A DNA stretch of 64,000 nucleotides. Source: Candidatus Omnitrophota bacterium (GTDB lineage Bacteria; Omnitrophota; Gorgyraeia; Zapsychrales; JANLHA01). The translations under genes were made by a program, and so were the position numbers. Where the stretch lies: positions 638 to 64,637 of the forward strand of contig JACKFI010000008.1 in NCBI GenBank assembly GCA_020632555.1, read 5' to 3'. This document shows positions 1-47,392 of the stretch, piece by piece; positions within the stretch are counted from its first letter, which is position 1, and each line of letters opens with the position of its first letter. The notes under the pieces are model-generated. The model saw nothing but the letters and a program-made list of their open reading frames with translations, was not told where the DNA came from and ran no database searches.

Positions 1-8
1 CCGATAGG

Positions 9-1148: not shown

Positions 1149-1200
1149 TTGGGTTAATTCTTGGGGGCATGGTTGGTATTAATATTAAATCTTATAAAAA

Positions 1201-1232
1201 ACGGTAATCTTGGGAGAGATTGCCGTTTTTTA
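1201..1232 (+). terminator. Rho-independent terminator after the coiled-coil gene
   Basis: ACGGTAATCT (1201-1210) pairs with AGATTGCCGT (1217-1226), including one G-U. The loop is TGGGAG and a T6 run follows. Confidence 0.7.
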
Positions 1233-1263
1233 TTAAAGATTCTTTAAAAAGGTTCTTTGTCTT

Positions 1264-2034: not shown

Positions 2035-2103
2035 TGGTTTCAGTAAAAAAATGTGCTCGACTAAAAAGATATTTATGTTAAATTCATTCACAGGAGAAAT
2101 TTT

Positions 2104-2607: not shown

Positions 2608-2699
2608 TTCTCGTTCTGTTGATGATATTATTGTGCCAGTTTCATCCTTGCGGATGGTTCCGTGTATGATTTTAATTTTGCAGTGAATGTGATTTTTGA

Positions 2700-2916
2700 A
2701 GATTGAAATCATGCTGGAAAGGAGAATCTCGTGAAAATCGAGAGCGGTCCCGCCACTGTGAATTCTAAAATAAGTTTTATGTTTTAGAAAAGTCAGGTCG
2801 CCTAACGGGTACAGAGTGGATTTCTCTGCGAAAGACAGAGGATGAAGACTACCCCTTGGGAATAAAGTGACGAAGGGTGCAATCCCAATTGAATATATAT
2901 TCGATTGGGGTTTTTT
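2700..2916 (+). promoter_or_regulatory. Cobalamin (B12) riboswitch with terminator expression platform
   Basis: The conserved core is read directly: GGAAAGGAGAATCTCGTGAAAATCGAGAGCGGTCCCGCCACTGTGA from 2716 (B12 box GCCACTG at 2752-2758). Then AAGTCAGGTCGCC at 2790-2803. A terminator hairpin CCCAATTGAAT / ATTCGATTGGGG (2884-2910) plus T6 ends 35 nt upstream of a TonB-dependent receptor gene. Confidence 0.8.
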
Positions 2917-2951
2917 GTTTATAAAAGGCAAACCATAACATTGGAGAAGAA

Positions 2952-7246: not shown

Positions 7247-8174
7247 GCATTGCAAGCGAATTGGAAATTTCATTAAGAGTGTATTTTTACGCACATTCTT
7301 TCTTTATTGTGCGTTGGGGATTGTGCTTTTTTCTTGTGTGGATATGGAGCGGGCTTGGAGTCATGTGGTAACAACGACTTTAAGCCGGTATATGCCGCCG
7401 CATGATTATTTGATTGCTTTTGATCATGACCGCAAAAAATTTGATTTGAAAAAAACGCAAGAATTTGAACGGTATTATCGTAAGGTTTCGCAATTTATGC
7501 CGTTTTTATCTGAGGCGCATGGGTTATTAGGTTTTTGTTATTTTTATGACGGACAAATTGGCAAAGCAGAGAAGGCTTACCAAGCGGCAACGCGCGCATA
7601 TTTTAAAATTTTTAATTTTCATTATAACTTAGCAGTTATTTCGCTTCGCAAGAATGATCATCGTAAAGCCTTGGAACATTTTAGAAATAGTGTTGATGTT
7701 TCACCCATTGAGAATATTCAATATATTGTTAATGCGCGAATGTATAAACCCTTCTTGCCTTTTGCAAAACAGCCGAATCTTTTAGCCGCGGCGATGGGTG
7801 AATATACTCACGATGTTTATTGGCGGGCTTATTTGCAAATTTTTGTGATTTGTGAGGAGCTCAAAGATTATCCGACGATGTTGTTTTACGCGCGTCATGC
7901 AATTGCTGGTGGATTCTCAAAGCAAGGGATTGCTTATTATTATGCGGGGCGAGCGGCGTATGAATTAAAAGAGTATAAAAGTGGGGCGTGGTATTTGCAT
8001 CAGGCGATTAGTGAGGGTTTTGATTACGCTCAGGCGTATCAGTTTATGGGTTTATCTTTAAGTGCATTGGGACGCGCGGAAAAGGACGCAGCGTTTATTG
8101 CAGCGGCGCGTTTAAGTTCTCAAGGAAAAGTTTTTTTGGGTCAAGAATTAAAGATGGAGTTATTGGTTTTTTGA
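7239..8174 (+). CDS. TPR-repeat protein with N-terminal membrane anchor
   Basis: The ORF track starts at 7176. The ATG at 7239 overlaps the upstream stop (ATGCTTGA) and is the likelier start. TPR-like A/Y/G periodicity (GKAEKAYQAATRAY..., YYYAGRAAYELKEYKSGAWYLHQAI, AQAYQFMGLSLSALGRAEKD). Confidence 0.6.
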   Translation: MLEHCKRIGNFIKSVFLRTFFLYCALGIVLFSCVDMERAWSHVVTTTLSRYMPPHDYLIAFDHDRKKFDLKKTQEFERYYRKVSQFMPFLSEAHGLLGFCYFYDGQIGKAEKAYQAATRAYFKIFNFHYNLAVISLRKNDHRKALEHFRNSVDVSPIENIQYIVNARMYKPFLPFAKQPNLLAAAMGEYTHDVYWRAYLQIFVICEELKDYPTMLFYARHAIAGGFSKQGIAYYYAGRAAYELKEYKSGAWYLHQAISEGFDYAQAYQFMGLSLSALGRAEKDAAFIAAARLSSQGKVFLGQELKMELLVF

Positions 8175-8190
8175 TTAGGGGCGGATTTAA

Positions 8191-9279
8191 TTAATCATCG
8201 TCGGTCATAATTTTGAATTGTGCCCAGATGGGTTTGTTGGCAGCGATAGGTTTCTTTTGCCGTGAAGGGAAGGCATCTTCTTTCATGTTGATGATGCCAA
8301 ATTTGCCGTTGTATTCAATAAGTTGGTTTCGTTTAAACCAAAAATTTCCCAGAAGATTAATTTGTGTTTTATTTGCGGGAGCGGATTTGGCAATGATTGG
8401 CAAAAAGGAGGAGGCACTATTCCAGTTTAATGCTTCTGAGTGAAAAGCAAAATCACCAAATATCATTGTGTCTTTAATATCGGGATTTTCATTTTGCAGG
8501 GTTTCATAAAATTCTTCTAATGGTTCAAGAGAAGCAAGGTTGATCCCGGCCAGGGGAGTATGAAATGTCGCGATGGTAAAATCAAAGTCGCCAATTTTAA
8601 ATGATTCATAATAAGGCTGGGATGGAAAAGCGTCAGTTTGGGGATATAGTTTACCGGCAGTTAAAGCTTGAATTTTATCACTGCGATACAAGTAGGCGGT
8701 GATTGTTTTGTCGTTGTTGGTTGCCGGGCTGGCTTCAACAGCCGCGTCATAGCGCAGAATTTTTAATAAAGTTGTCGCTTGAGGCAGAAATCTTTGATTG
8801 GTCAGACCGGCAATACTGCTTAAATCACAAAAACGAAGAATGTTGGCAAGATGGACCATTTCTGGATCAGTGAGTGAATTATTCAAAATAAAATTAGCGT
8901 CAAATGAACAGACTGTAATTTCATCGGGTTGATGCCGAATCATTTCGGCGGGGATGTCTTTTTCCAGCGCTTCGGCCGTATAGATCAGTTCTTCAAAGGT
9001 TCGGGTTTCAACTTTAGGCGCCGCTAATTTTTCTTGGGTTTTTTGAAGGCGGGCTTCTTTCCATTGAGCTATTTTATCATTGAATTTTTTGCTGAATTCT
9101 TTGGCAGATTTATTGTAATCTCTTAAGTAAAAATTAATTTTTGCGATTTCTCGTTTGTGAGAGCGCTGAAAATCCTTGTTATTATAAACCACATATCCTG
9201 CGCCAATGATGATAACCAGACAAAAAATAATGGTTAAAAAAGCTTTGCCATGTTTATTTTCGTTTTGAGTGGAATTCAT
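8191..9279 (-). CDS. Membrane-anchored DNase I / endonuclease-exonuclease-phosphatase (EEP)-like protein, possibly catalytically degenerate
   Basis: 362 aa with an N-terminal TM (AFLTIIFCLVIIIGAGYVVY) and a coiled-coil linker. Blocks have EEP-like spacing: ITVCSFDANFI, CDLSSIAGL, AYLYRSDKI, FDFTIATFHTP, MIFGDFAFH. The fold call is by eye only. Confidence 0.4.
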   Translation of the reverse strand: MNSTQNENKHGKAFLTIIFCLVIIIGAGYVVYNNKDFQRSHKREIAKINFYLRDYNKSAKEFSKKFNDKIAQWKEARLQKTQEKLAAPKVETRTFEELIYTAEALEKDIPAEMIRHQPDEITVCSFDANFILNNSLTDPEMVHLANILRFCDLSSIAGLTNQRFLPQATTLLKILRYDAAVEASPATNNDKTITAYLYRSDKIQALTAGKLYPQTDAFPSQPYYESFKIGDFDFTIATFHTPLAGINLASLEPLEEFYETLQNENPDIKDTMIFGDFAFHSEALNWNSASSFLPIIAKSAPANKTQINLLGNFWFKRNQLIEYNGKFGIINMKEDAFPSRQKKPIAANKPIWAQFKIMTDDD

Positions 9280-9964: not shown

Positions 9965-10884
9965 GCGATGATCGCGATATTTTTCTTGCTTGTCTTGGTT
10001 TTGGCGGCGGGATTTGGTGGTTTTTCAACGGGTTTAAACTTTTTCGAAAGAAACAATTAATTGATAATATCCCGACGTCCACGGTTCGCGCAATGGCGAT
10101 GGGGTTGGTCGAATTAAGTGGACGAGCTTGTCGTCAAACACCCTTAAAAGCGCCATTTACTCAAGAGGATTGTGTTGCTTATACCTACTTGATTGAACGT
10201 TATGAACGACGAGAAAAATCTAGTTCTTGGGTGACGATTGCCAAGGGCAATAGTTTTCAATGTTCTTTTGATTTAGAGGATGAGACGGGGCGTGTTACGA
10301 TTGTTCCGCATAATGTTGAATTTATTGTGGATGCCGCATATTCATTTACAACGGGATGGGGCAAGGCTCTACCAGTTAATTTAATTAACTTTATGACCAA
10401 AAACAGCATTGCTTATCGAGGACTTTTTGGTAATCACACATTACGCTTTACTGAAAGAAGTATTTGTGCGGGTGATCCGATTTATGTTTTGGGTACGGCA
10501 AAGAAAATTGTGTCAAGCGTGCAGGAACATCAGATTCGCAAGAGTCGGTTGGTTGAGCGTTTAAATGAAGTAAAAAGTGACCCGAAATTTATGGCACAAG
10601 CGGATACGAACAAAGACGGCCATATTAGTGAAGACGAATGGCAGCGGGCGGTATTAAAAGTTGAGCAAGAACTTTTGCAAAATGAAATGAGTCAAGCGAC
10701 GGAAGACATTCCCGACGTGGTCATCGGTCAGGGAGAAACGGAAAAGACGTTTATTGTTTCCAACAAAAGTCAGGAAGATTTAGATCAGAGTTTTGCTTGG
10801 CAAATGATTGGTGGAATTTTGGGTGGGGCAATGGCGACCGTTGTTTGTTTGTGGTATTTATTAGTGCGATTTGGTATTTTCTAA
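9961..10884 (+). CDS. GIDE-domain two-TM membrane protein with an inserted canonical EF-hand
   Basis: 307 aa with N-terminal TM (FLACLGFGGGIWWFFNGF) and C-terminal TM (MIGGILGGAMATVVCLWYLLV). GIDE-type block IPTSTVRAMAMGLVELSGRA...APFTQEDCVAYTY. EF-hand loop DTNKDGHISEDE encoded at 10603-10638. Confidence 0.65.
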   Translation: MSDDRDIFLACLGFGGGIWWFFNGFKLFRKKQLIDNIPTSTVRAMAMGLVELSGRACRQTPLKAPFTQEDCVAYTYLIERYERREKSSSWVTIAKGNSFQCSFDLEDETGRVTIVPHNVEFIVDAAYSFTTGWGKALPVNLINFMTKNSIAYRGLFGNHTLRFTERSICAGDPIYVLGTAKKIVSSVQEHQIRKSRLVERLNEVKSDPKFMAQADTNKDGHISEDEWQRAVLKVEQELLQNEMSQATEDIPDVVIGQGETEKTFIVSNKSQEDLDQSFAWQMIGGILGGAMATVVCLWYLLVRFGIF

Positions 10885-10899
10885 AAAAAGGAGAGGCGT

Positions 10900-11469
10900 A
10901 TGGGATTTGTTATCCTTGCAGTTGTGTTGTTTGTGGTGATCGGCGTCGCGATGTATTTCGTCGGTGTTTACAATGGCCTGATTTTGCTGTCTCGCAATAT
11001 CGATAAAGCGTGGGCTAATATTGATGTTTTGCTCAAGCAGCGTTACGACGAGATTCCCAAACTTGTCAAAGTGTGTGAAGGGTATATGAAGTTTGAAAGG
11101 GAGACTTTGGAAAAAATCACGTTGGCTCGTACCGCCTGTATGGGAGCTAAGTCGGTGGGTGAAACGGCCGCCGCGGAAGGGATGTTGACCCAATCTTTAA
11201 AAACTTTGTTTGCGGTTTCGGAAAATTATCCGGATTTAAAAGCCAATAATAATTTTACGCAGTTGCAAGGCCGCGTGAGTTATTTAGAAAGCCAATTGGC
11301 GGATCGACGAGAGTTTTATAATGATTCGGTCAATACATATAATATTCGCATTGCTTCAATTCCCGATATGTTTGTTGCTAATTCTTTGAACATGACCTCC
11401 CGGGAAATGTTTAAGGTCGCCGAACAAGAACGGCAAGATGTTGAAATCAAGTTCGATTTTCCTAAATAG
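10900..11469 (+). CDS. lemA: LemA family protein
   Basis: 189 aa. N-terminal TM, then YNGLILLSRNIDKAWANIDVLLKQRYDEIPKLV and ...SENYPDLKANNNFTQLQGRVSYLESQLADRREFYNDSVNTYN, typical LemA blocks. SD AAGGAGAGG upstream. Confidence 0.85.
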   Translation: MGFVILAVVLFVVIGVAMYFVGVYNGLILLSRNIDKAWANIDVLLKQRYDEIPKLVKVCEGYMKFERETLEKITLARTACMGAKSVGETAAAEGMLTQSLKTLFAVSENYPDLKANNNFTQLQGRVSYLESQLADRREFYNDSVNTYNIRIASIPDMFVANSLNMTSREMFKVAEQERQDVEIKFDFPK

Positions 11470-11518
11470 TTGCTGTAAAGGGATCAGTGATCAATTGCGT
11501 CCGGTCAAGTTGATTGTC

Positions 11519-27134: not shown

Positions 27135-27155
27135 TCCTGCGCCCCGCCAGTTTTA

Positions 27156-30100
27156 TTATTTTCTTATATTAGGTGTAGTATAGAAATTAGTGTTATTGCT
27201 GTCGTCGATGACATTGATAATGACGTAATCAGATGATGTTAGTTCCCCGTCGCTAGCTGTTAATCTAAAGATGTAAAATCCTTTTTGAGGAAATTTGACA
27301 GAGGTTGTTAAACTATTGGGATTGTCGAGAATGGCTTGTGATCTGCCATAAATTTGACTCCAGGAAATTGTAAGTGAATTGTTTGGATTTCCGTCATCTG
27401 TCGCTTTGCCTTGTAAAGTGACAGATGAGTTGAGTTGGACACGTTGGTGTAAGCCGGCATCCACAACAGGAGCTTTGTTGTTGGTAATGGGCTTGAAATT
27501 AGCGGTAACAGATTTATTGCCGTCGATAGTGATTGTCACGGGATTGCTTGAGCTGCTGATATCTCCGCTCCAAGAATCAAACTGATAACCTTTGTTTGGA
27601 ATAGCAGTTAAAGTGACTTTGTCGCCGGCTTGATAACTGGCTTGATTGGGACTTCGGGTAACTGCCCCGTTGGTTGCGGTTGTATTTAAAGTGTATGCAG
27701 GAACAGCTTTGACCGTGACGATAATATCGTCGCTGGAAGATAATTCACCGTCACTGACGGTGAGTCTTAGCATATAAGTTCCTGTCGCATAGAATGAAAC
27801 TGATGTTGTTAAAGCATGCTTGTCAGTAAATAATGCACTGCTGGGTCCTTCAACCATGCTCCAAGTTGAAGTTAATGTTTGGCTGGGCAATCCATCATCA
27901 GTTGCGCTGCCACGCAAACTAGCCGTATTGGGCAATTGAATGGTTTGATCTGTGCCTGCATTGACGACGGGAGCTTTGTTGGTAATGATCAAGGTAAAAT
28001 TAGCGGTAACAGATTTATTGCCGTCGATAGTGATTGTCACGGGATTGCTTGAGCTGCTGATATCTCCGCTCCAAGAATCAAACTGATAACCTTTGTTTGG
28101 AATAGCAGTTAAAGTGACTTTGTCGCCGGCTTGATAACTGGCTTGATTGGGACTTCGGGTAACTGCCCCGTTGGTTGCTGCTGTATTTAAAGTGAATGTC
28201 GAAACGGCTTTGACCGTGACGACAATATCGTCGCTGGAAGATAATTCACCGTCACTGACGGTGAGTCTTAGCATATAAGTTCCTGCCGCATAGAATGAAA
28301 CTGATGTTGTTAAAGCATGTTTGTCGGTGAATAATGCACTGCTGGGTCCTTCAACCATGCTCCAAGTTGAAGTTAATGTTTGATTGGGCAGCCCATCATC
28401 AGTTGCGCTGCCATGCAAACTAGCCGTATTGGGCAATTGAATGGTTTGATCTGTGCCTGCATTGACGACGGGAGCTTTGTTGGTAATGATCAAGGTAAAA
28501 TTAGCGGTAACAGATTTATTGCCGTCGATAGTGATTGTCACGGGATTGCTTGAGCTGCTGATATCTCCGCTCCAAGAATCAAACTGATAACCTTTGTTTG
28601 GAATAGCAGTTAAAGTCACTTTGTCGCCGGCTTGATAACTGGCTTGATTGGGACTTCGGGTAACTGCCCCGTTGGTTGCTGCTGTATTTAAAGTGAATGT
28701 CGAAACGGCTTTGACCGTGACGACAATATCGTCGCTGGAAGATAATTCACCGTCGGAAACGGTCAATCTCAATAAATACGTCCCTGCTGTTGAAAAGGCA
28801 GCGGATGTTTTAAGTGCCTGTGCATTGGCAAAGGTCACTTGCCCAGCCCCTTCGACCAGACTCCATTGAGACGTTAATGTTTGATTGGGCAGCCCATCAT
28901 CAGTTGCACCACCACTTAGATTGACAGTATTGGGCAATTGAATGGTTTGATCTGTGCCTGCATTGACGACGGGAGCTTTGTTGGTAATGATCAAGGTAAA
29001 ATTAGCGGTAACAGATTTATTGCCGTCGATAGTGATTGTCACGGGATTGCTTGAGCTGCTGATATCTCCGCTCCAAGAATCAAACTGATAACCTTTGTTT
29101 GGAATAGCAGTTAAAGTGACTTTGTCGCCAGCTTGATAGCTGGCTTGATTGGGACTTCGGGTAACTGCCCCGTTGGTTGCTGCTGTATTTAAAGTGAATG
29201 TCGAAACGGCTTTGACCGTGACGACAATATCGTCGCTGGAAGATAATTCACCGTCACTGACGGTGAGTCTTAGCATATAAGTTCCTGCCGCATAGAATGA
29301 AACTGATGTTGTTAAAGCATGTTTGTCGGTGAATAATGCACTGCTGGGTCCTTCAACCATGCTCCAAGTTGAAGTTAATGTTTGGCTGGGCAGCCCATCA
29401 TCAGTTGCACCACCACTTAGATTGACAGTATTGGGCAATTGAATGGTTTGATCTGTGCCTGCATTGACGACGGGAGCTTTGTTGGTAATGATCAAGGTAA
29501 AATTAGCGGTAACAGATTTATTGCCGTCGATAGTGATTGTCACGGGATTGCTTGAGCTGCTGATATCTCCGCTCCAAGAATCAAACTGATAACCTTTGTT
29601 TGGAATAGCAGTTAAAGTCACTTTGTCGCCGGCTTGATAACTGGCTTGATTGGGACTTCGGGTAACTGCCCCGTTGGTTGCTGCTGTATTTAAAGTGAAT
29701 GTCGAAACGGCTTTGACCGTGACGACAATATCGTCGCTGGAAGATAATTCACCGTCGGAAACGGTCAATCTCAATAAATATGTTCCTGCTGTTGAAAATG
29801 ATACAGATGTATTAAGTGCTTGCGCGTTGGCAAAGGCTACTTGGCTGGGGCCTTGGATAAGGCTCCAAGTTGAAGTTAATGTTTGGCTGGGCAGCCCATC
29901 ATCAGTTGCGCTGCCACGCAAACTAGCCGTATTGGGCAATTGAATGGTTTGATCTGTGCCTGCATTGACGACGGGAGCTTTGTTGATAATGATCAAGGTA
30001 AAATTAGCGGTAACAGATTTATTGCCGTCGATAGTGATTGTCACGGGATTGCTTGAGCTGCTGATATCTCCGCTCCAAGAATCAAACTGATAACCTTTGT

Positions 30101-32306
30101 TTGGAATAGCAGTTAAAGTCACTTTGTCACCAGCTTGATAACTGGCTTGATTGGGACTTCGGGTAACTGCCCCGTTGGTTGCTGCTGTATTTAAAGTGAA
30201 TGTCGAAACGGCTTTGACTGTGACGACAATATCGTCGCTGGAAGATAATTCACCGTCAGAAACAGTCAATCTCAATAAATACGTTCCTGCTGTTGAAAAT
30301 GATACAGATGTATTAAGTGCTTGCGCGTTGGCAAAGGCTACTTGGCTGGGGCCTTGGATAAGGCTCCAAGTTGAAGTTAATGTTTGACTGGGCAATCCAT
30401 CATCAGTTGCGCTGCCATGCAAACTAGCCGTATTGGGCAATTGAATGGTTTGATCTGTGCCTGCATTGACGACGGGAGCTTTGTTGGTAATGATCAAGGT
30501 AAAATTAGCGGTAACAGATTTATTGCCGTCGATAGTGATTGTCACGGGATTGCTTGAGCTGCTGATATCTCCGCTCCAAGAATTAAATTTATAACCTTTG
30601 TATGGTATTGCGGTTAAAGTTATTGTGTCGCCTAATCCATAGCTTGATTGTGTAGGATTTATAAGGATACTTCCGTTAATGGCGGAAGTTGTTACAGTAT
30701 ATCTGGCAGTATTGTAGTTATAATCGGCCCATGAATTGATGAATGCAAGGCTTGAGCTGATTCTATCGAATTCTCTGGGAGTTCCGTTACCGACAATTTC
30801 TTCACCGGTTGCAGTATTAATGAGTTTGAAATTTTTCAGTATTGTTGAATTCCCGGCCGCGTTATCAAAGACTTGAATATAATATCGAGTTAATGTTGAG
30901 CCAGAAGGGAGAAGATCGGTAAAGTCAACGACGAAATTTCCGTCTATTGCGGTGGTTGATCCATTGTAGGAAAAAGCTCCGCCATTATAATGAGGTTGAC
31001 CCAAGGAATAGTTAGTGATTGTTGGTGTTGTAGCTGTTGTATTTGAAGTTCCTAAAACGATCAGATTTTGATTTCTTTGTGCTTGATTGAGTGTAAATTG
31101 ACCGATGAGTTTTGGTGTGTAATTAGATTTGACCGTCATGACATAAGCCCAATTGCCCCAAATGGCTCCTTCTCGTGCTGTTGGAGCCCCAGCGACTTTA
31201 GATGTGGTTTGGATGGCGTCATAAGCTAACCACATAAAGCCACTATTTCCCCAGCCGCTGCCCCAAGAGTTAGCGATTTTCAAAGCGCCCAATTCACCGG
31301 TATCAACAACACCATTGCCATTAATATCCGTCCAAATATCATCATTGTAGCCGACGATGGTCATCGAATGGCCACCTTTGCTATTGTTTATTGCGTAGGA
31401 GGCAATGTTTTGATTGATAAATGGATCGTCTGCAGATGATAAAACATTGTTTTTGATAGTGGTAAATCGCCAGTCATAAATGTAGGTTCCGAAAATAAGA
31501 ATATAACCATTATTCAAAAGTTGTTTGAGCTGTTCTAGCCCAGCTGGGGTGTTAATGTCGCGCGTGTATTGAACAGGATTGATTCGAGCATTAAGAGCAT
31601 TGCGCCAGATTTGGGCGTTGGTTGGCCAAGAAAGGTAATCACTATTATAGGGAAGCTCCGCCCATGTGGGTGCGCCATTGTTTTCCAGAATTTGATAATT
31701 GTCAGAAAAAGAAGATCCAGCATTTTGTCCGTAATTAATGAGGTTATAAACAAATTTTGGTGAGTAAACAACATTTGTATCTCCGGTATTAATGGCAATA
31801 TCTTTATCGCGAGCCTGCATGTAAGAAAGTTGGTAATAGGTGATTGAAAAAGGAGCACAAGAACCCAGTGACCCTTGGCTTCTAATTGGTGGAAACCAGG
31901 GATTTTGACTATTGTCAACAAAGGTTGGCAAGGTGCCTCCAACTTGGGATGAATAGCTGGCAGATAAAGATAGTGAAGAAACACCTGAACTTGTTGTTGA
32001 GGGATCAATTTCAGATTCAATATCTTGGTTATTATCAGCAATAATTTCCTGCTGAACTGTAGCGCGGCGCAGGGTCCTTCCTTGTTTTTTTAATTGAGCC
32101 TTGATGCGGTCATTTCCCAGCTGGTTAATATGGACTTTTTTAATACGTTTTCCGTTGTAGCGGATAAAGTCATCACTGGCTTGACTGTTGATTAAACCAG
32201 TCGGCTGCGAATGGTCGGTTTTCCAATCCTCTGCATACAAAGGTTGAGAATAAATGGTTAATAAGGCTAATAATGTGAAAATAATAAGGCAAGAACGTCT
32301 GATCAT
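27156..32306 (-). CDS. Giant secreted papain-like (C1) cysteine protease with 7 tandem [InlB-B-repeat-like + PKD-like] modules
   Basis: The ORF opens at 32381. MIRRSCLIIFTLLALLTIYSQPLYA (signal peptide) starts at ATG 32306 behind AAAGGAAA. C1 catalytic blocks QGSLGSCAPFS, GGHSMTIVGY, NSWGSGWGNSGFMW. Seven ~167-aa units follow, each of form ...NGAVTRSPNQASYQAGDKVTLTAIPNKGYQFDSWSGD...NKAPVVNAGTDQTIQLP...LRLTVSDGELSSSDDIVVTV. Confidence 0.85.
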   Translation of the reverse strand: MIRRSCLIIFTLLALLTIYSQPLYAEDWKTDHSQPTGLINSQASDDFIRYNGKRIKKVHINQLGNDRIKAQLKKQGRTLRRATVQQEIIADNNQDIESEIDPSTTSSGVSSLSLSASYSSQVGGTLPTFVDNSQNPWFPPIRSQGSLGSCAPFSITYYQLSYMQARDKDIAINTGDTNVVYSPKFVYNLINYGQNAGSSFSDNYQILENNGAPTWAELPYNSDYLSWPTNAQIWRNALNARINPVQYTRDINTPAGLEQLKQLLNNGYILIFGTYIYDWRFTTIKNNVLSSADDPFINQNIASYAINNSKGGHSMTIVGYNDDIWTDINGNGVVDTGELGALKIANSWGSGWGNSGFMWLAYDAIQTTSKVAGAPTAREGAIWGNWAYVMTVKSNYTPKLIGQFTLNQAQRNQNLIVLGTSNTTATTPTITNYSLGQPHYNGGAFSYNGSTTAIDGNFVVDFTDLLPSGSTLTRYYIQVFDNAAGNSTILKNFKLINTATGEEIVGNGTPREFDRISSSLAFINSWADYNYNTARYTVTTSAINGSILINPTQSSYGLGDTITLTAIPYKGYKFNSWSGDISSSSNPVTITIDGNKSVTANFTLIITNKAPVVNAGTDQTIQLPNTASLHGSATDDGLPSQTLTSTWSLIQGPSQVAFANAQALNTSVSFSTAGTYLLRLTVSDGELSSSDDIVVTVKAVSTFTLNTAATNGAVTRSPNQASYQAGDKVTLTAIPNKGYQFDSWSGDISSSSNPVTITIDGNKSVTANFTLIIINKAPVVNAGTDQTIQLPNTASLRGSATDDGLPSQTLTSTWSLIQGPSQVAFANAQALNTSVSFSTAGTYLLRLTVSDGELSSSDDIVVTVKAVSTFTLNTAATNGAVTRSPNQASYQAGDKVTLTAIPNKGYQFDSWSGDISSSSNPVTITIDGNKSVTANFTLIITNKAPVVNAGTDQTIQLPNTVNLSGGATDDGLPSQTLTSTWSMVEGPSSALFTDKHALTTSVSFYAAGTYMLRLTVSDGELSSSDDIVVTVKAVSTFTLNTAATNGAVTRSPNQASYQAGDKVTLTAIPNKGYQFDSWSGDISSSSNPVTITIDGNKSVTANFTLIITNKAPVVNAGTDQTIQLPNTVNLSGGATDDGLPNQTLTSQWSLVEGAGQVTFANAQALKTSAAFSTAGTYLLRLTVSDGELSSSDDIVVTVKAVSTFTLNTAATNGAVTRSPNQASYQAGDKVTLTAIPNKGYQFDSWSGDISSSSNPVTITIDGNKSVTANFTLIITNKAPVVNAGTDQTIQLPNTASLHGSATDDGLPNQTLTSTWSMVEGPSSALFTDKHALTTSVSFYAAGTYMLRLTVSDGELSSSDDIVVTVKAVSTFTLNTAATNGAVTRSPNQASYQAGDKVTLTAIPNKGYQFDSWSGDISSSSNPVTITIDGNKSVTANFTLIITNKAPVVNAGTDQTIQLPNTASLRGSATDDGLPSQTLTSTWSMVEGPSSALFTDKHALTTSVSFYATGTYMLRLTVSDGELSSSDDIIVTVKAVPAYTLNTTATNGAVTRSPNQASYQAGDKVTLTAIPNKGYQFDSWSGDISSSSNPVTITIDGNKSVTANFKPITNNKAPVVDAGLHQRVQLNSSVTLQGKATDDGNPNNSLTISWSQIYGRSQAILDNPNSLTTSVKFPQKGFYIFRLTASDGELTSSDYVIINVIDDSNNTNFYTTPNIRK
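27470..30600. repeat. Intragenic tandem repeat, 501-bp period, ~6 near-identical copies plus diverged flanking copies
   Basis: The marker AGCGGTAACAGATTTATTGCCGTCGATAGTGATTGTCACGGG recurs at 27501, 28002, 28503, 29004, 29505, 30006 and 30507, an exact 501-bp spacing. The unit is in-frame (167 codons). Confidence 0.95.
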
Positions 32307-32466
32307 GATTAATTTCCTTTCAGTATTAATGTATTGTGTGCCAGAAGTCAGCAGAGCAGAAAAAGCTTTGGTATTTGTCAAACACGATGTTCTCGTGAGA
32401 GTTTACCTGATGAAATGGACAGAAGCAAGGGCATGGGGAGTTTTAGGGGATTATTTTCTTAATTAA

Positions 32467-32507
32467 TAAAAAAACCAGCCAGCGACAGATGTCACTGGCT
32501 GGTTTTT
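32467..32507 (-). terminator. Bidirectional-looking terminator after the S8 protease gene
   Basis: A-run, then CCAGCCAG (32475-32482) ... CTGGCTGG (32495-32502), then T-run. It lies 12 nt beyond the S8 stop, so the giant protease has its own promoter. Confidence 0.75.
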
Positions 32508-32518
32508 GAATATAACTG

Positions 32519-34330
32519 TTATTTTCGAGATGTTCTAAAGTTGCTAACTAATGTTGTCTCATTTGAGCTGCCATCATTGCTGATGACTGTTATTTTATAG
32601 AAATATCGTGTGGATTTTGTTAGATTCTTTAGGGTTATAACGTGATCGGTTGCCAGTGTGTTATCCGTTGCGGAAAGATTTAAGCTGGATTTTGCTGTTC
32701 CGTAAGAAATAATGCCAGTCGAAGGCAAATTTGTCGTCCAAGCAATGGTTGCTGTTGTCGCATTCTTTTCTGTGACTGAATAGGAATTAATGCTGACAAT
32801 TTGAGGTGCTTGGGGAATGATTGCGGTTGCAACATTGCTAGCTTGAGAAATATTGCCAGCTGCGTCAAAAGCTTTAATCGTGTAATTATATGTTGCCTCA
32901 GGAACAACCGTATTGTCACTATAGCTTGTCATTGTGTTTGTTCCAATTTCAATATTATCGCGATAAATTTTATAACCGCTTACGCCGACCAAATCGATTG
33001 ACGCATTCCATGACATTTGGACACTGGTACTGTCTAATGCTGTGATAATAAGATTGGTTGGTGCTGTTGGAGGTGTTGTATCAACATTGCCTGTTGCATT
33101 TCTTGCGGCTAAAACAGCAGCTGCCGCATTCACGCGACCCCATCCATAGTATAGATCCCAACCAACAGAACCTAGATCAACAGCTGTTGATTTTAAAATA
33201 CTTTCCGCTTGATCAGGTGTTAAATTTGGATTAGCGGCAAAAATCAAAGCAAGAACAGCTGCAGTTGTTGGCGTGGCAAAAGAAGTTCCTGAAACGCTCG
33301 TGTAACCGCCGCTTGAGCTGGTTGTATAAATGCCGACGCCTGGAGCTGAAATATCAATTGCGTCACCATAGTTAGACCAACCTGCTCTATTGTCATTAGC
33401 GTCTGTAGCCGCAACAGTAATAACGGATGTTGGGTTAGGTGTGGTCAATAAGACCCCTTCATTTCCGGCAGCAGCAAGAAATAAACCATTTTTGCTGCGC
33501 AAATAACTGGCCGCACTTTGTACAGAAGCACTATTAGAGGAAGCATAGCTGTTGGTTGCAATTTTTGCGCCATGATCAGCTGCATAAACAATGCCATTGG
33601 CAACATCTGAAAAGTAAGCGTAACCTGTCGTATCGTTTGTAATACGAATGGGCATGATTTTTGCTTCAAAAGCTACGCCAGCAGAGCCAATATTATTATT
33701 GCCAGTTTCTGCGACAACTCCTGCGACTTTTGTTCCGTGCCCGTAAATATCAGTAAAATCATTGTTGTTGCTGATAACATTCCAGCCAGAAATACAATTT
33801 GCCACAAGGTCAGCATGGTTGCAATTGACTCCAGTATCAAGCACGGCTACCACAACACCTTGACCTTTGGTTGTATTCCAGGCAGAAGGAGCTTCAATTT
33901 TTGTTGCGTGCCATTGATCTGAGAAGTTGGGGTCATTGGGGATAAGGCTAGGTTCAATGAGAGCATCTACTTCTGCAAATTCAATGGTATTTGTTTCTTG
34001 CGCATTGAGTCGATCAACAACTTCCTGTGGAGTATCGTCTAGTGAAATGCTAAGGAGTTTGATTCCCAGTTGACGAATTTCTTTCTTCTCTTTCAGATTG
34101 TGCTTAGAGAGAAGTTTATCTTTGGCCATCGGGCTGGCATTATTTTTGAATTTAACAATGATATGGTCGCTTGCTTCGCCAAGATGGCGTCCTTTAGAAA
34201 TATCAGAAGATTTTTCTGATGCTTGCGATGGTATTTTGGGTGCGGCTAATGCGAATGAAGTAAAGACCAGGAGAATGGTTAGTGAAAGCAAACATTGGCA
34301 GCATTTTCTTGTGTGTTTGAGCCAGTTCAT
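32519..34330 (-). CDS. Secreted subtilisin-like serine protease (S8) with I9 propeptide and two C-terminal FN3 domains
   Basis: 603 aa with a signal peptide (...LLVFTSFALA). Triad blocks VAVLDTGV (D), HGTKVAGVVA (H), SGTSFATPTTAAV (S). FN3-like PPTAPTNLIITALDSTSVQMSWNAS...YKIYRD. Confidence 0.9.
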   Translation of the reverse strand: MNWLKHTRKCCQCLLSLTILLVFTSFALAAPKIPSQASEKSSDISKGRHLGEASDHIIVKFKNNASPMAKDKLLSKHNLKEKKEIRQLGIKLLSISLDDTPQEVVDRLNAQETNTIEFAEVDALIEPSLIPNDPNFSDQWHATKIEAPSAWNTTKGQGVVVAVLDTGVNCNHADLVANCISGWNVISNNNDFTDIYGHGTKVAGVVAETGNNNIGSAGVAFEAKIMPIRITNDTTGYAYFSDVANGIVYAADHGAKIATNSYASSNSASVQSAASYLRSKNGLFLAAAGNEGVLLTTPNPTSVITVAATDANDNRAGWSNYGDAIDISAPGVGIYTTSSSGGYTSVSGTSFATPTTAAVLALIFAANPNLTPDQAESILKSTAVDLGSVGWDLYYGWGRVNAAAAVLAARNATGNVDTTPPTAPTNLIITALDSTSVQMSWNASIDLVGVSGYKIYRDNIEIGTNTMTSYSDNTVVPEATYNYTIKAFDAAGNISQASNVATAIIPQAPQIVSINSYSVTEKNATTATIAWTTNLPSTGIISYGTAKSSLNLSATDNTLATDHVITLKNLTKSTRYFYKITVISNDGSSNETTLVSNFRTSRK

Positions 34331-34545
34331 AACGGATTTCCTTTCTTTGATTATATTGTATAATTGTTCATGTTGTCCGTGTTGTCTGGCGAAAGGGTAA
34401 CATTTTTAGGCCAGAGGAGCAAGTGGGTCGCTGGGTTTTTCCCTTTGAGACACAAAAGAGCTTTTTTAATTTGTGTTTGTTTGAATTAGCTTTATAATTT
34501 CACAGAAGGTATGGGTTTTTAATAAGACTGGGTGTTTCCTATTTA

Positions 34546-35076
34546 GTGATGATAGTTAAGCCGAATAAGAGTATTTTAAAGCGATTATTTAAGCGTCGGC
34601 CTTCGGCTTTGTTTGTTTTACAAATTTTTTTAGTAGCGGTGATTTTGGTTTCTGTTGGTATTGCTGTTTTTCGTTATCAGCGAACAGTTTTTGTGATGGC
34701 AGAACCCAAGAATCATCAGTCGCAAAAAAGCCAATCTGTGGATAGTGTCTTGGCGAAAGATGGTAAGCCATTGAGCTTTTATCAGGATCTTATAAATCAA
34801 CGGGATATTTTTCATTTTCAATCTTCTGTTGTTGAGCCCGTCGGAGAAGTTGGTGAATTGATAACTGCGGCGGATAGCAATTTTTCTTCACGGTATATTG
34901 TGCAGGGTATTGTGATTGATCAAAATTCGCAAGCAATTATTAAAGATATGCAAAGTGCCAAAACACTTTTTGTACATCGCAATGAACAACTCAATGGAGC
35001 AACCCTGGTTGATATTCAGGGCAATCGACTGACTTTTAATCTCAATGGCAAAACTTTCGAATTGATTAAAAAATGA
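34546..35076 (+). CDS. GspC/PilP-like inner-membrane secretin-coupling protein
   Basis: 176 aa. One N-terminal TM (ALFVLQIFLVAVILVSVGIAVF). C-terminal beta domain YIVQGIVIDQNSQAIIKDMQSAKTLFVHRNEQLNGATLVDIQGNRLTF. The stop overlaps the secretin start (ATGA). Confidence 0.5.
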   Translation: MMIVKPNKSILKRLFKRRPSALFVLQIFLVAVILVSVGIAVFRYQRTVFVMAEPKNHQSQKSQSVDSVLAKDGKPLSFYQDLINQRDIFHFQSSVVEPVGEVGELITAADSNFSSRYIVQGIVIDQNSQAIIKDMQSAKTLFVHRNEQLNGATLVDIQGNRLTFNLNGKTFELIKK

Positions 35077-36749
35077 ACTCACCCTTATTGAATTTATTAA
35101 ACATTCGACAGAAGATTATTAAAAATTTTTTACTTGGCGGGATATTGGTGTTTTTTGGGCTGGTGTTGGTGAATGCTCAAGCGCAAGAGAGTGATGTTTT
35201 GCCTGATAACATGTTGCCTGACGTCGTTGCTCAACAGGCGGATGGAGGTGTTTTGGCAGAACCGGCAGTTGCGCCAATTGTTAAAAGGGATGTTGGGATG
35301 ACCATTAGCCCAGGTTTTAAAAGTGATGAGGGCAGCGCGGGAAGCTTGACGCTGATTGATGAATTGGATTTAAAGAATGTGGATATTGCGGATGTTTTAA
35401 AATTGGTTTCGCAAAAAAGCGGAATGAACATCGTTGTTGGCAGTACGGTTGCGGGTAACGTGACTTTGTATTTGAAGAATGTCACAGCTTTGGATGTGTT
35501 GGGTATTATTTCTAAAACAAATGATTTGGCTTATGTTCAAGAAGCCAGATTGATTCATGTTATGACGGGTGCGGATTATGAAAGAATTTATGGCCGAAAG
35601 TTTTTTAATCAAAATAAAATTATTTTGCAAAAGTTAAATTATATCAGTATCGCTGAAGCTGTTCCTATGCTTGAGCGAATGAAAAGTCCCAATGGTGTTA
35701 TTCTTGCTGATGCCCGCAGCGGCACCATTTCTTTAAATGATTTGCCGGAGAATATTCTGGATATGGTGGCTTTTATCCGTGAGATTGATGTCCCGCGGAT
35801 GACCAAGGTCTTTCATTTGACCTATGCCACGGCAGAAGATTTAGCGGAAAGAATCACGCTGATCCTGACACCGACGGTTGGGTCAATGCGGTTTGATAAG
35901 CGAACCAATAAGATTTCGGTGACCGATATTCCTGATAAGATTCGGGAAATTGAGCAGATGATTATTGCGTTTGATGTTAAAGAACAGCAAGTTTCCATTG
36001 AAGCTAAAATTGTGCAGGTTATTTTGAGTGATCAATTCCAAATGGGGGTCAATTGGCAGGCTGTTTTGAATACAGCACATGATTTGAATGCGATTAGCAA
36101 TTTTGATGTTTTAGGATCAACGGCAAAACATGGGCGGATGAGCATTGGGACTTTGGCGGATGATAATTATACAGCGATGATTGAGGCTTTACAGACTTTT
36201 GGCAAGACGGAGAATCTTTCTAACCCGCATATTATGGTTACTAATAATCAAGAAGCGAAGATTTTGGTGGGTTCCAGTGAGCCTTATGTGACTTCAACAA
36301 CAACGACGCCATCTTCTGGACCGACCACAACAGCCGAAACGATCAATTTTATTGAAGTCGGGGTTAAGCTATATGTCACGCCAACGGTTCATCAAGACGG
36401 TTATATCACAATGAAAATTAAGCCGGAAGTCAGTGCGGTGACCCGCAATGTGACGACCAGCAATAATAATACCATTCCCGTAGTGGAGACGTCAGAAGCT
36501 GAAACAACAGTGTTGGTCAAGAATGGCGTGACTATTGTGATTGGTGGATTGATTAAAGATGAGACGATTAATACCGATTTAAGCGTTCCGATACTGGGCA
36601 AGATTCCTCTGCTGGGTGCCGCTTTTCGCAGCAAAGATCATTACAATCGTAAAACAGAATTGGTTATATTTTTAACTCCTCGCATAGTTTCAGGTGGCCC
36701 ATCAATTGCGCAAAAATCAGAAAAACTTAAATCTGACTCCTTGCAATGA
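35073..36749 (+). CDS. gspD: Secretin (GspD/PilQ family)
   Basis: 558 aa with a signal peptide. N-domain DLKNVDIADVLKLVSQKSGMNIVVG. C-terminal secretin core ...TVLVKNGVTIVIGGLIKDE...VPILGKIPLLGAAFRSKDHYNRKTELVIFLTPRIV. Confidence 0.9.
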   Translation: MNSPLLNLLNIRQKIIKNFLLGGILVFFGLVLVNAQAQESDVLPDNMLPDVVAQQADGGVLAEPAVAPIVKRDVGMTISPGFKSDEGSAGSLTLIDELDLKNVDIADVLKLVSQKSGMNIVVGSTVAGNVTLYLKNVTALDVLGIISKTNDLAYVQEARLIHVMTGADYERIYGRKFFNQNKIILQKLNYISIAEAVPMLERMKSPNGVILADARSGTISLNDLPENILDMVAFIREIDVPRMTKVFHLTYATAEDLAERITLILTPTVGSMRFDKRTNKISVTDIPDKIREIEQMIIAFDVKEQQVSIEAKIVQVILSDQFQMGVNWQAVLNTAHDLNAISNFDVLGSTAKHGRMSIGTLADDNYTAMIEALQTFGKTENLSNPHIMVTNNQEAKILVGSSEPYVTSTTTTPSSGPTTTAETINFIEVGVKLYVTPTVHQDGYITMKIKPEVSAVTRNVTTSNNNTIPVVETSEAETTVLVKNGVTIVIGGLIKDETINTDLSVPILGKIPLLGAAFRSKDHYNRKTELVIFLTPRIVSGGPSIAQKSEKLKSDSLQ

Positions 36750-38458
36750 CGGATATTTTAAAACACAGGCATATTCGTTTAGGCGAAATTCTGATCGCCG
36801 AGAAATTAATAACTGAAGATGATTTGCAGGCTGCTTTAAAGGAACAAGAACGATCTGGCGGCGGGTTAGCTGAGGTGTTGTTGCGGACAAAATTTCAGCA
36901 GCAGCCGCAGGTGCTTTATCGTGTTTTAGCTAAACAGCTGCGTGTTGATTTTGTGGATTGTGCCGCTATTGAAATTCCGCCGACAGTGGTGTCAGCTATT
37001 TCTGCGCAAGCAGCTTTGTATTTTAAAGTCTTGCCGATTGAATTTCAAAATGATGAATTGGTGATCGCGACGTCTGATCCGGCGAATGTTGATAAGCTCG
37101 ACGGATTGACAAGTATTGTTGGCAAACGCATTCGTTTTGTTTTGGCCATTGAAGCGGATATTCTCGATGGCATTCGTCAGTATTATGGCTTGGGCGCGGA
37201 AACTATCGCGCGCATGTTAGAAGGTAAAGAGACTGTTGTAGCAGCTGCTGAACCGGTCATTGAAGACATTTCTGATGTTAATAGTGAGGCGTCGATTGCT
37301 CGTTTTGTTAATCAGGTTTTGCTGGAAGCATGTCGCAATCGCGCGACGGATATTCATTTTGAACCATATGAAAATGATTTGCGGGTCCGGTATCGTATTG
37401 ATGGTGTTTTGCATGACGCGCCGGTTCCGGCAGAAATCAGGCATTTTAAAGATGCGATTAATTCACGAATTAAAATTCTGTCGCGTTTAAATATTGCCGA
37501 AAAACGTCTTCCGCAGGATGGACGTTTTAATGTGTTGGCTGGAAAACAGACTTTGGATTTGCGCATTTCATTTTTGCCGACGGCTTGGGGTGAAAGTTTG
37601 GTTTTGCGTATTTTAGAGCATGATCGTTTGCGGGATTTATCGGAGTTGGGTTTTGCCCCGCATGATTTAGCTATTTTAGAAAAGTTGTTGCAAGTGCCAC
37701 ATGGTCTTATTTTTGTTACCGGTCCAACAGGAAGCGGTAAAACCACCACGCTGTATTCGTGTTTGTCGCGGTTAAATCGTCCGGAACATAAAATTATTAC
37801 TATTGAGGACCCTATTGAAGTTCAATTGAAAGGAATTTCGCAAATTCAAGTTAATCCGGCTATTGGGTTAACGTTTAGTCATGGTTTGCGTTCTATTTTG
37901 CGGCATGATCCCGATATTATGATGGTCGGAGAAGTTCGTGACCGGGAAACGGCTGAGATTGCCGTACAGGTGGCTTTAACCGGGCATTTGGTGTTTTCCA
38001 GTATCCATACCAATGATGCATCATCAGGTGCCGCTCGTCTTATTGATATTGGTTGTGAACCGTATTTGATTTCAAGTTCAGTAATATGTTTTATTGCTCA
38101 GCGACTGGTGCGGGTTTTGTGTCCGTCTTGCAAGAAGCCCAGCAGTTTAAATGAAGAGTTGGCGGCAGATTTTGGTTTAAAACCAGCCGACATTAAGGCA
38201 ATACAATTTTTCGCATCGACAGGATGTGAACTTTGTCAAATGACAGGTTTTCGTGGACGAATCGCGATTTATGAATTTCTTCTTGTAACCAATGATATTC
38301 GTCAGTTGATTCAGGCGCGTGCCTCCGCACAGGATATTCGGCGGCAAGCTTTAAAGCAAGGGATGATTCCTTTGCGGCAAACAGGTTGGCAAAAAGTGTG
38401 TCAAGGTTTGACAACTCCAGAAGAAGTTTTGCGGGTGACTCGAGATGAGGCGATGTAG
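36746..38458 (+). CDS. gspE: GspE/PilB-type secretion ATPase with N-terminal MshEN (T2SSE_N) domain
   Basis: 570 aa with an ATGA overlap upstream. Walker A GPTGSGKTTT, Asp box ITIEDPIE, Walker B IMMVGEVRD, His box, tetracysteine CPSC...CELC. N-terminal RLGEILIAEKLITEDDLQAALKEQ. Confidence 0.9.
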   Translation: MTDILKHRHIRLGEILIAEKLITEDDLQAALKEQERSGGGLAEVLLRTKFQQQPQVLYRVLAKQLRVDFVDCAAIEIPPTVVSAISAQAALYFKVLPIEFQNDELVIATSDPANVDKLDGLTSIVGKRIRFVLAIEADILDGIRQYYGLGAETIARMLEGKETVVAAAEPVIEDISDVNSEASIARFVNQVLLEACRNRATDIHFEPYENDLRVRYRIDGVLHDAPVPAEIRHFKDAINSRIKILSRLNIAEKRLPQDGRFNVLAGKQTLDLRISFLPTAWGESLVLRILEHDRLRDLSELGFAPHDLAILEKLLQVPHGLIFVTGPTGSGKTTTLYSCLSRLNRPEHKIITIEDPIEVQLKGISQIQVNPAIGLTFSHGLRSILRHDPDIMMVGEVRDRETAEIAVQVALTGHLVFSSIHTNDASSGAARLIDIGCEPYLISSSVICFIAQRLVRVLCPSCKKPSSLNEELAADFGLKPADIKAIQFFASTGCELCQMTGFRGRIAIYEFLLVTNDIRQLIQARASAQDIRRQALKQGMIPLRQTGWQKVCQGLTTPEEVLRVTRDEAM

Positions 38459-38479
38459 AGTCAGGATGCAGAGGTTTTT

Positions 38480-39691
38480 ATGATGAGATTTTTTTATAAA
38501 GCGCGAGACGTTCAGGGAGTTTTGGTTGAAGGTCAGCTGGATGCGCAATCGCGCGCGGAAGCTGTTCAACAGATTTTGCGTGATAAATTAGTGCCGCTTG
38601 AAGTTGAAGGGCAAGAAGTCAAAAGTTCACAACGAACATCTGTATTGAATAAAGGGCGCGTTCGTTTAGAAGATTTGGCTGATTTTCTTCGACGGTTATC
38701 TGATTTGGTGGAAGCGGATCTTCCCTTGATTCGCGCTTTACAGATTGTTGAAAAACGAACGACGCGCGTGCTGTTGAAAGAAGCGATTGGTCGGATTTTG
38801 GTGAAAGTTTCGGATGGGTCGACTTTGTCGGCGGCTATTGCCGCGGAACCGCGAGTTTTTCCGGCATTTTGGCCGGGGTTGATTTATGCCGGAGAATTGA
38901 GCGGGCGGCTTAAACAAATCCTTTCGCGTTTGAGTCAATTGGTTGAAAAGGAATTGGAAACACGTTCACGATTGATCAGCGGCGCGATTTATCCTTTGAT
39001 TATTTTGATTGTTGGTATTTTGACTGTTTTTGCTTTATTGGTTTTTGCAGTTCCTCGATTGAGCGCGATGTTTGTTGAATTGGGGCAACAGTTGCCCTTG
39101 ATTACAAAGATTTTATTAGCCGTCAGTGCTTTTTTGGTTAAAACGTGGTGGATGTTTTTGGTGCTGGGTTTTGTCGTGGGTTTTTGGATTAAATTTTTAT
39201 TTTCGACGGCATCGGGGAAATTGATGTGTGAACGCTATTTATTGCGATTACCCTTTTGGGGTGAATTTATTAGTGTTGATGATATGGAACGTTTGGCGCG
39301 AACCATCGGGATTCTTTTAGAAAGCGGCGTTGAAACCGTGACAGCTTTAGATTGTGGGATGCAAACTGTCAAGCGTGAAACTTTTAAAGTTCATCTTAAA
39401 AGAGTGATTGAATCGGTTCGGCAGGGTGTGGGCTTAAGCGCGGCTTTTGCCCGCTCGCCGGTATTTTCAGAAGATATCGTTAATATGCTTAATGTCGGAG
39501 AGGAATCAGGACGAGGTTATCAAGGATTTTTGCAATGGGCGCAAGTGTGTGATCGTCGGTTGGAGCGGATGACAAAAATGGCCACGGCTTTGATTGAGCC
39601 GGCATTGATTCTTTTGATTGGGGGTATGGTTGGTTTTATTGTGATGGCGCTTTTGTTGCCGATTTTCCAAATGAGCATGGGGATGGGATAA
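38480..39691 (+). CDS. gspF: GspF/PilC inner-membrane platform protein
   Basis: 403 aa. Duplicated T2SSF architecture with 3 TM helices. ...AIYPLIILIVGILTVFALLVFAVP... and C-terminal LIEPALILLIGGMVGFIVMALLLPIFQM. Confidence 0.9.
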   Translation: MMRFFYKARDVQGVLVEGQLDAQSRAEAVQQILRDKLVPLEVEGQEVKSSQRTSVLNKGRVRLEDLADFLRRLSDLVEADLPLIRALQIVEKRTTRVLLKEAIGRILVKVSDGSTLSAAIAAEPRVFPAFWPGLIYAGELSGRLKQILSRLSQLVEKELETRSRLISGAIYPLIILIVGILTVFALLVFAVPRLSAMFVELGQQLPLITKILLAVSAFLVKTWWMFLVLGFVVGFWIKFLFSTASGKLMCERYLLRLPFWGEFISVDDMERLARTIGILLESGVETVTALDCGMQTVKRETFKVHLKRVIESVRQGVGLSAAFARSPVFSEDIVNMLNVGEESGRGYQGFLQWAQVCDRRLERMTKMATALIEPALILLIGGMVGFIVMALLLPIFQMSMGMG

Positions 39692-46897: not shown

Positions 46898-46913
46898 GAG
46901 AGGAAAAGAAAAG

Positions 46914-46997
46914 TGCTGGAGGAGGGAATCGAACCCTCACCAAGTTGCCCTGACTGGTTTTTGAGACCAGCGCGTATACCAGTTCCGCCACTCCAGC
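46914..46997 (-). tRNA. tRNA-Leu (anticodon CAA)
   Basis: Reverse complement GCTGGAGTGGCGGAACTGGTATACGCGCTGGTCTCAAAACCAG...GGTTCGATTCCCTCCTCCAGCA. Anticodon loop CT-CAA-AA. Long variable arm. T-loop GGTTCGATTCC. No encoded CCA. Confidence 0.9.
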
Positions 46998-47035: not shown

Positions 47036-47300
47036 CAGCTTGCTCTGCGAAGCTCAAACCTGTATTCATTTCGCAAGTTGTAGAGCATACTCTGCGAGGC
47101 ATAAATTTGTAATTATTTCGCGAGTTGCAGAGCTTGCTCAGCGAAGCTCAAATCTGTAATCATTTCGCAAGTTGTAGAGCATACTCTGCGAGGCATAAAT
47201 TTGTAACTATTTCGCGAGTTGCAGAGCTGGCTCTGCGAAGTACAAATTTGTAATTATTTCGCCAGTTGCAGAGCTTGCTCTGCGAAGCTCAAACGTGAAA
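47036..47300. repeat. 47-bp tandem repeat (5.5 copies; 94-bp higher-order period) between the two tRNA genes
   Basis: Units start at 47068, 47115, 47162, 47209 and 47256, with a partial unit from ~47036. Two alternating unit types. Each contains a 6-bp-stem hairpin (GCAGAG-CTTG-CTCTGC or GTAGAG-CATA-CTCTGC). Confidence 0.9.
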
Positions 47301-47319
47301 ACTTTTGAGCGAAGCAGAG

Positions 47320-47392
<73 letters not shown>

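Follow-up and report, generated by a model that had tools for sequence, protein, structure and literature searches.

The Periscope Proteins (SasG, Aap, Rib and Sgo_0707) carry near-identical tandem domains that form stalks of variable length, and the identity of these domains at the DNA level promotes intragenic recombination (Whelan et al. 2021; PMC8201768). They are the closest described class to the gene analysed here, which encodes a C1 family peptidase (hereafter, the protease) of an uncultured Candidatus Omnitrophota bacterium and lies within a 64-kb window, i.e. the whole stretch of DNA that was analysed (64,000 nt of contig JACKFI010000008.1). As in that class, a functional N-terminal head is present in the protease, followed by many folded domains of near-identical DNA sequence. 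The G5-E repeats of SasG alternate two folds and identical domains are never direct neighbours in them, a trait that the protease shares, its own alternating folds likewise keeping identical domains apart. It differs from the Periscope Proteins, however, in having no detectable anchor, a papain-like head instead of an adhesin and an environmental Omnitrophota host, and in that each unit includes an internal zone where old alleles have been reshuffled. Moreover, the class is defined by variation in repeat number between strains, whereas the array of the protease is known here from one contig alone.

Mosaic variable segments set in a conserved frame and shuffled by gene conversion also characterize pilE/pilS, vlsE, msp2 and the diversity-generating retroelements, and these features recur in the array of the protease. 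In contrast to pilE/pilS, vlsE and msp2, no silent donor cassettes were found in the window and the ratio of nonsynonymous to synonymous divergence (dN/dS) was low; in contrast to diversity-generating retroelements, the substitutions were not adenine-specific and were biased towards the third codon position. Within the phylum itself, a 2026 preprint that deals with long proteins and complete genomes of Omnitrophota reports that near-identical nucleotide tandems rarely fill much of a long coding sequence (10.64898/2026.06.07.730766), and against this background the present array, which takes up 68% of the coding sequence and the C-terminal two-thirds of the protease, stands out.

A repeat search returned seven copies, spaced 501 bp and in frame, at 27195-30701 on the minus strand (Table 1), and a 40-nt marker (AGCGGTAACAGATTTATTGCCGTCGATAGTGATTGTCACG) recurred at 27501, 28002, 28503, 29004, 29505, 30006 and 30507. 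Both the array and the seven marker positions were exactly as described in a first-pass annotation made from the sequence alone. The limits set there (27470-30600) proved too narrow, and the order of the units, right as the order along the protein, corresponds to descending positions in the window because the gene lies on the minus strand. Tandem Repeats Finder was silent on the array for the sole reason that its maximum period is 500. Each 501-bp unit encodes 167 aa and comprises one divergent InlB B-repeat and one K319L-type PKD domain. Seven stretches of Flg_new_2 (PF18998, the divergent InlB B-repeat; 383.6 bits, above threshold) and seven of the K319L-like PKD family (PF22352; 311 bits) were found with Pfam, and the TIGR02543 repeat (119.9 bits) with NCBIfam. 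An AlphaFold2 model of unit 3, with a mean predicted local distance difference test score of 93.7, consisted of two all-beta (beta-sandwich) domains, and in Foldseek its PKD half matched the PKD domains of KIAA0319, KIAA1837 and AAVR with template modelling scores of 0.69-0.82.

Divergence was very unevenly distributed, both along the unit and along the array. Units 2-6 were 85-97% identical overall and 98.5-100% identical in the B-repeat half; synonymous divergence (dS) among units 1-6 was 0 over codons 40-90, and a core of 82 nt (unit nt 119-200) was identical in all seven units. Within unit nt 273-444, the alleles differed from each other by 30-40%. This 172-nt zone includes the two variable patches already annotated, namely patch 1, which reads ASLHGS, ASLRGS or VNLSGG, and patch 2, with its alleles A, B and C, of which B occurs three times in the array and A twice. 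The patch sequences and the succession of combinations, from ASLH with A to ASLR with B and then a diverged last unit, were reproduced exactly; both patches exist, but they are the two ends of a single zone broken by an ATDDGLP motif. The earlier description of the units as nearly identical save for the patches, with a diverged last unit, did not include the divergence at the start of unit 1. The first 117 nt of unit 1 showed a dS of 1.4-2.0 to units 2-6, whereas the same stretch of units 2-6 showed a dS of 0.08-0.16 to unit 7 (and >1.4 to unit 1). Unit 7 was 96-97% identical to the other units in its B-repeat but had a DNA identity of only 52% in its PKD half, and the PKD scaffold of units 2-6 was 97% identical to that of unit 1 and 52% to that of unit 7. 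At the right edge of the 172-nt zone, the allele-B units carry a perfect 8-bp palindrome, TCACCGTCAGTGACGGTGA (29248-29266, 28246-28264 and 27745-27763, minus strand), and the units with allele A or C a weaker, 6-bp form of it.

The units are a recombinational mosaic, and a duplication tree alone cannot yield their patch combinations. Among units 1-6, 53 informative sites were found; ten of them (nt 273-291) separated units 3 and 4 from the rest, thirty (nt 340-443) separated units 3, 5 and 6 from units 1, 2 and 4, and lone sites supported the pairs 1 and 5, 1 and 6, 4 and 5, and 2 and 4. A duplication tree was ruled out because the groupings of units 3 and 4 and of units 3, 5 and 6 are incompatible. 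The four-gamete test was failed by 558 of the 1378 site pairs, the permutation test of the pairwise homoplasy index gave p<1e-4, and the Hudson-Kaplan minimum number of recombination events (Rmin) was 6, so that at least six such events are required. The stretch between patch 1 and patch 2 holds conflicting synonymous sites of its own, together with the constrained ATDDGLP motif. The first-pass annotation had preferred intragenic recombination or gene conversion to duplication plus drift, and the incompatible partitions, the two statistics and the uneven dS all bear this out.

Purifying selection of the ordinary kind acts on the patch alleles, which are ancient, and the scaffold is either very young or continually overwritten. 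This follows for the alleles from Nei-Gojobori estimates, in which synonymous sites of the patches were saturated between alleles (proportion of synonymous differences, pS, 0.70-0.85) while dN/dS was low (0.12-0.19). In patch 2, alleles A and B differed with a pS of 0.74 (dS about 3) and a dN/dS of 0.12, and alleles A and C with a dS of 0.86 and a dN/dS of 0.13; in patch 1, synonymous sites were saturated between the ASL and VNL forms and dN/dS was not computable. Of the 46 differences between A and B, 24 fell on third codon positions, and all four bases were involved (A 13, T 15, C 11, G 7); transitions and transversions were equal in number among the patch differences, and a serine codon switched between TCT and AGT. 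Constraint on the patches was at least as strong as in the array's remaining old parts, where dN/dS was 0.18-0.23 for the start of the unit 1 B-repeat and 0.2-0.3 for unit 7 (dS from 0.5 to saturated), each against the other units. Positions variable among units were also variable in the wider family (2.2 versus 1.5 bits, p=5e-5), and only three core-like positions had changed among units, each between A and V. When family conservation and hydrophobicity were used as a stand-in for solvent exposure, the patch residues fell mostly on non-core, family-variable positions, a placement that would arise wherever a folded domain has diverged for a long time and that therefore does not favour reading the patches as a repertoire.

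Neither antigenic variation nor positive selection gained support from the analysis. The idea that the cassettes serve binding specificity or antigenic variation had been raised in the first-pass annotation, and it is not supported in view of the low dN/dS of the patches, the third-codon bias, the lack of donors in the window, the lack of a detectable anchor and the environmental host; comparison of dN/dS in patches and scaffold revealed old patches and a scaffold with a dS of 0, and no sign of positive selection. Hypermutation of the patches was rejected, as all four bases are involved and the changes are biased to third codon positions. A diversity-generating retroelement was ruled out by the same four-base, third-position-biased substitutions and by the lack of a second copy of the unit in the window; neither a template repeat nor a reverse transcriptase was found in the window, in which no whole-window scan aimed at the latter was made.

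If the patch alleles were a selected repertoire, diversifying or balancing selection would hold them apart for different ligands and their shuffling would be adaptive. We regard this as unlikely. The sharp bounds of the diverged zone within otherwise identical units would suit such selection, but the zone is also the one farthest from the homogenisation core, as neutral decay predicts. Similarly, the alleles have been kept long enough for synonymous saturation, as in long-term balancing selection, and the replaced residues, mostly non-core and family-variable, lie on strands B to F and in loops, yet dN/dS is no higher in the patches than in the rest of the old, diverged sequence of the array. 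Some bacterial proteases and chitinases have PKD domains able to bind insoluble substrates, but the presence of allele B in triplicate and of A in duplicate would make poor use of a binding repertoire. A variant of this proposal, in which shuffled PKD specificities would tune the attachment of an accessory, type II-secreted protease to envelopes or polymers by means of donor-free cassettes within the gene, is very doubtful; a dependence of Omnitrophota on hosts or prey is suspected.

Instead, this is probably a recently amplified, lineage-specific array that has been homogenised by gene conversion and whose old alleles have been reshuffled in the 172-nt zone. The array evolves in concert, its units exchanging sequence by unequal crossing-over and by gene conversion over short tracts. 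This has wiped out all synonymous differences around the 82-nt core of the B-repeat, with an effect that would weaken away from it; the 172-nt zone at the greatest remove, which spans PKD strands B to F, would for that reason have kept ancient alleles under purifying selection, and these have been re-dealt among the units by conversion to give the combinations of H, R and VNL with A, B and C. Conversion may start in the core and fade with distance, and the high divergence may then block further conversion; the unhomogenised zone lies at about the maximal distance from the core that the 501-nt period allows. As to its origin, the array may derive from a shorter ancestor in which the segment between homologous B-repeats was amplified by unequal crossing-over, because the interior units join a 5' B-repeat part of the unit 7 type to a PKD scaffold of the unit 1 type. 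With 14 beta-sandwich domains and, between them, linkers of no more than about 5 residues, the product could act as an extended stalk or as a multivalent, substrate-binding tail.

Several points weigh against this explanation. The gene occurs in one assembly only. A neutral model based on distance from the core and a selective retention of the patches predict the same static pattern. The role as a stalk or in binding, as well as export by type II secretion (see below), is inferred from domain content and gene neighbourhood. In addition, B, C and VNL could be imports from paralogous PKD genes or from other strains, and the count and order of the units hang on the assembly of an array whose longest exact repeat measures 353 nt.

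Ectopic import, in which B, C and VNL would have been copied from other PKD genes or strains into a young and uniform array, appears quite improbable. The interior units do resemble copies of one PKD scaffold of the unit 1 type and yet hold synonymously saturated segments, and the gene is located on an accessory segment, but no donor is present in the window: blastn and tblastn searches of the 64 kb, with all units as queries and the array masked, returned no significant match. PKD and B-repeat domains are abundant in large repeat proteins (60,531 matches), which would provide potential sources; against this, listed database proteins other than the protease itself were at most 60% identical to the unit. 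A search of one unit against an index of 5.8 billion proteins likewise returned only short proteins of ≤60% identity, a result with little bearing on donors as the protease itself was not recovered.

The possibility that the number or order of units, or part of the mosaic, arose from repeat-graph threading or from stringing strains together was judged highly improbable. Short-read contigs from Logan (SRR12358675 and SRR12358676) were 100% identical to the window over 13.8 and 11.4 kb and stopped at window positions 30554 and 27525, i.e. 28 and 31 nt into the outermost 82-nt cores. Two independent k=31 assemblies of the population thus fail to cross the array, which contains 12 exact repeats of at least 150 nt and is known from a single contig of the collection; at the same time, both array edges in these assemblies are identical to the window. 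The array is also in frame, with an exact spacing of 501 nt and an intact open reading frame (ORF) of 1716 aa and, by our reasoning, if every unit occurs once, one linear path alone uses them all. Identical units could have been collapsed in the assembly. The combinations of patches within units are nevertheless safe, because the informative sites from patch 1 to patch 2 are <31 nt apart and can be resolved by short reads. The array had been flagged as an assembly hazard from the outset, and the ends of the Logan contigs, just inside the repeat core, confirmed it: the array breaks short-read assemblies, and long reads are needed before the number of units can be relied on.

The complete product is identical to MCB9757576.1, 'C1 family peptidase [Candidatus Omnitrophota bacterium]', and the only contig known to encode it is one of 67.8 kb from a metagenome-assembled genome (MAG). 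In the collection searched the gene formed a singleton cluster confined to one contig, although an exact look-up of the 1716-aa product returned no contig encoding it. Translation was taken to start at the ATG at 32306, which is preceded by an AAAGGA Shine-Dalgarno sequence; this start was preferred to a longer ORF beginning with TTG (27156-32381), which is a mechanical call. The papain-like head lies at the N-terminal end, distal to the repeat tail, and contains all of the Cys, His and Asn motifs; its match to PF00112 in Pfam scored 32.9 bits (cut-off 20.7), and the nearest solved chain by sequence was 3ois, a cysteine protease. After unit 7, the protein ends in a 12-aa tail, NTNFYTTPNIRK, with no LPXTG, PEP-CTERM or type IX secretion C-terminal domain. 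Neither Pfam nor NCBIfam revealed a surface anchor or sorting domain, though the protein may attach non-covalently.

The protease half has >300 homologues with 37-50% identity, most of them of 550-920 aa and with 1-3 PKD domains. Members of this C1+PKD family, which is found in environmental bacteria (P0001 of a Candidatus Omnitrophota MAG, for example), share with the protease the signal peptide, the papain-like domain, the middle beta region and the C-terminal PKD; they differ in that the protease has seven modules of B-repeat plus PKD, while Flg_new_2 was absent from the precomputed Pfam domains of the 120 homologues listed. In scans of genome and metagenome contigs, neither the gene nor the repeat had a close relative; the best match was 50% identical and lay on a 2.2-kb contig. 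This closest homologue of the protease half (L003; JBAXBM010000313.1, 2232 nt, from an Omnitrophota MAG) runs off its contig at about query residue 481, and its C-terminal part, too, may consist of repeats that resist assembly. In several distant relatives, two or three C1 peptidase paralogues stand in tandem (L004, at 6807-8282 and 10001-11476; L007; L010). A didomain period of ~167 aa recurs in another protein, P0298 (1616 aa; PKD starts at 1008, 1188, 1355 and 1521), whose B-repeat is very similar (…RVTRNPNQASY…GYQFVGWSGD…). P0298 differs in its N-terminal part, which lacks a C1 peptidase, and in its units, which are 36-51% identical, the normal state of neighbouring domains.

Both proteases of this locus, the one described here and an S8 subtilase with fn3 domains, belong to a 7.3-kb accessory segment, since the corresponding loci of a sister species (L013-L017, 87-89% DNA identity) are without both: these are collinear with the window on either side and have 131 nt in place of 27137-34461. 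The segment is flanked by rlmN and by a type II secretion operon, and no repeats or mobile-element genes were found at its edges. With a strong terminator of its own, the subtilase gene forms a transcription unit separate from that of the protease. A Sec signal peptide can be read on the protease, and GspD, GspE and GspF are encoded 2.8 kb from its gene; judging from this neighbourhood, the adjacent type II secretion system is likely the export route of the protease. Type II secretion-like loci have been described next to giant Omnitrophota genes (West-Roberts et al.; 10.1101/2023.11.21.568195), which is consistent with the present arrangement and proves nothing about export.

Some further features were noted elsewhere in the window. 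Collinearity with the sister species also stops at ~23651, left of a DUF212 gene; beyond that point, L013, L014 and L017 carry at 1-3741 a very long ORF (>2193 aa, PPDK_N/PEP-utilizers), and the window a ferrochelatase gene and a ComM-like Mg-chelatase gene. A 47/94-nt tandem repeat at 47037-47293 (possibly to ~47600; 5.5 copies, 79-90% matches) is flanked by tRNA-Leu(CAA) (46913-46997) and tRNA-Ala(GGC) (47319-47392), and self-similar matches that overlap one another occur in this area of the sister species too. A cobalamin riboswitch match at 2673-2823 (plus strand), exactly at the Rfam gathering score of 31.5 bits, lies upstream of a 669-aa ORF (2952-4961).

Table 1 Features of the protease gene, its repeat array and the neighbouring genes (window coordinates).
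Feature	Position	Strand	Basis or remark
C1 family peptidase coding sequence, 1716 aa, NCBI MCB9757576.1	27156-32306	-	Database identity, ORF
Sec signal peptide MIRRSCLIIFTLLALLTIYSQPLYA, cut predicted before ED	32232-32306	-	Sequence reading, without a predictor
Papain-like Peptidase_C1 catalytic domain; GSC (Cys), GGHS (His), NSWG (Asn)	31215-31928	-	Profile and motifs
Middle beta-rich region, common to >300 homologous C1+PKD peptidases	30702-31214	-	Homologue search
Unit 1 (ASLH + allele A); first 117 nt an old, diverged array edge	30201-30701	-	Alignment, dS
Unit 2 (ASLR + allele A)	29700-30200	-	Alignment
Unit 3 (VNL + allele B); modelled with AlphaFold2	29199-29699	-	Alignment, model
Unit 4 (VNL + allele C)	28698-29198	-	Alignment
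Unit 5 (ASLH + allele B)	28197-28697	-	Alignment
Unit 6 (ASLR + allele B)	27696-28196	-	Alignment
Unit 7; B-repeat homogenised, PKD old and diverged; 12-aa tail after it	27195-27695	-	Alignment, dS
82-nt core, unit nt 119-200, identical in 7/7 units	27496-27577	-	Also from 27997, 28498, 28999, 29500, 30001 and 30502
Unhomogenised 172-nt zone, unit nt 273-444 (patch 1, DDGLP motif, patch 2), unit 6	27753-27924	-	
Same 172-nt zone, units 5 to 1	28254-28425, 28755-28926, 29256-29427, 29757-29928, 30258-30429	-	
7.3-kb accessory segment: C1-array protease and S8 subtilase	27137-34461	.	Sister-species comparison
S8 subtilase with fn3 domains	32519-34330	-	Neighbour of the protease gene
Strong terminator of the S8 subtilase	32470-32507		
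Start of type II secretion operon (GspD, GspE, GspF and onward)	35073-39691	+	Putative export route

The array illustrates, clearly but in no unusual way, a concerted evolution of repeats that has left islands of relic alleles, and by itself it opens no new biological question. It offers a clean and quantifiable example of concerted evolution within one bacterial gene, with a dS of 0 in the scaffold and synonymous saturation in the allele islands, and it indicates that what appear in raw sequence as variable cassettes can be old relics and not fast-evolving sites.

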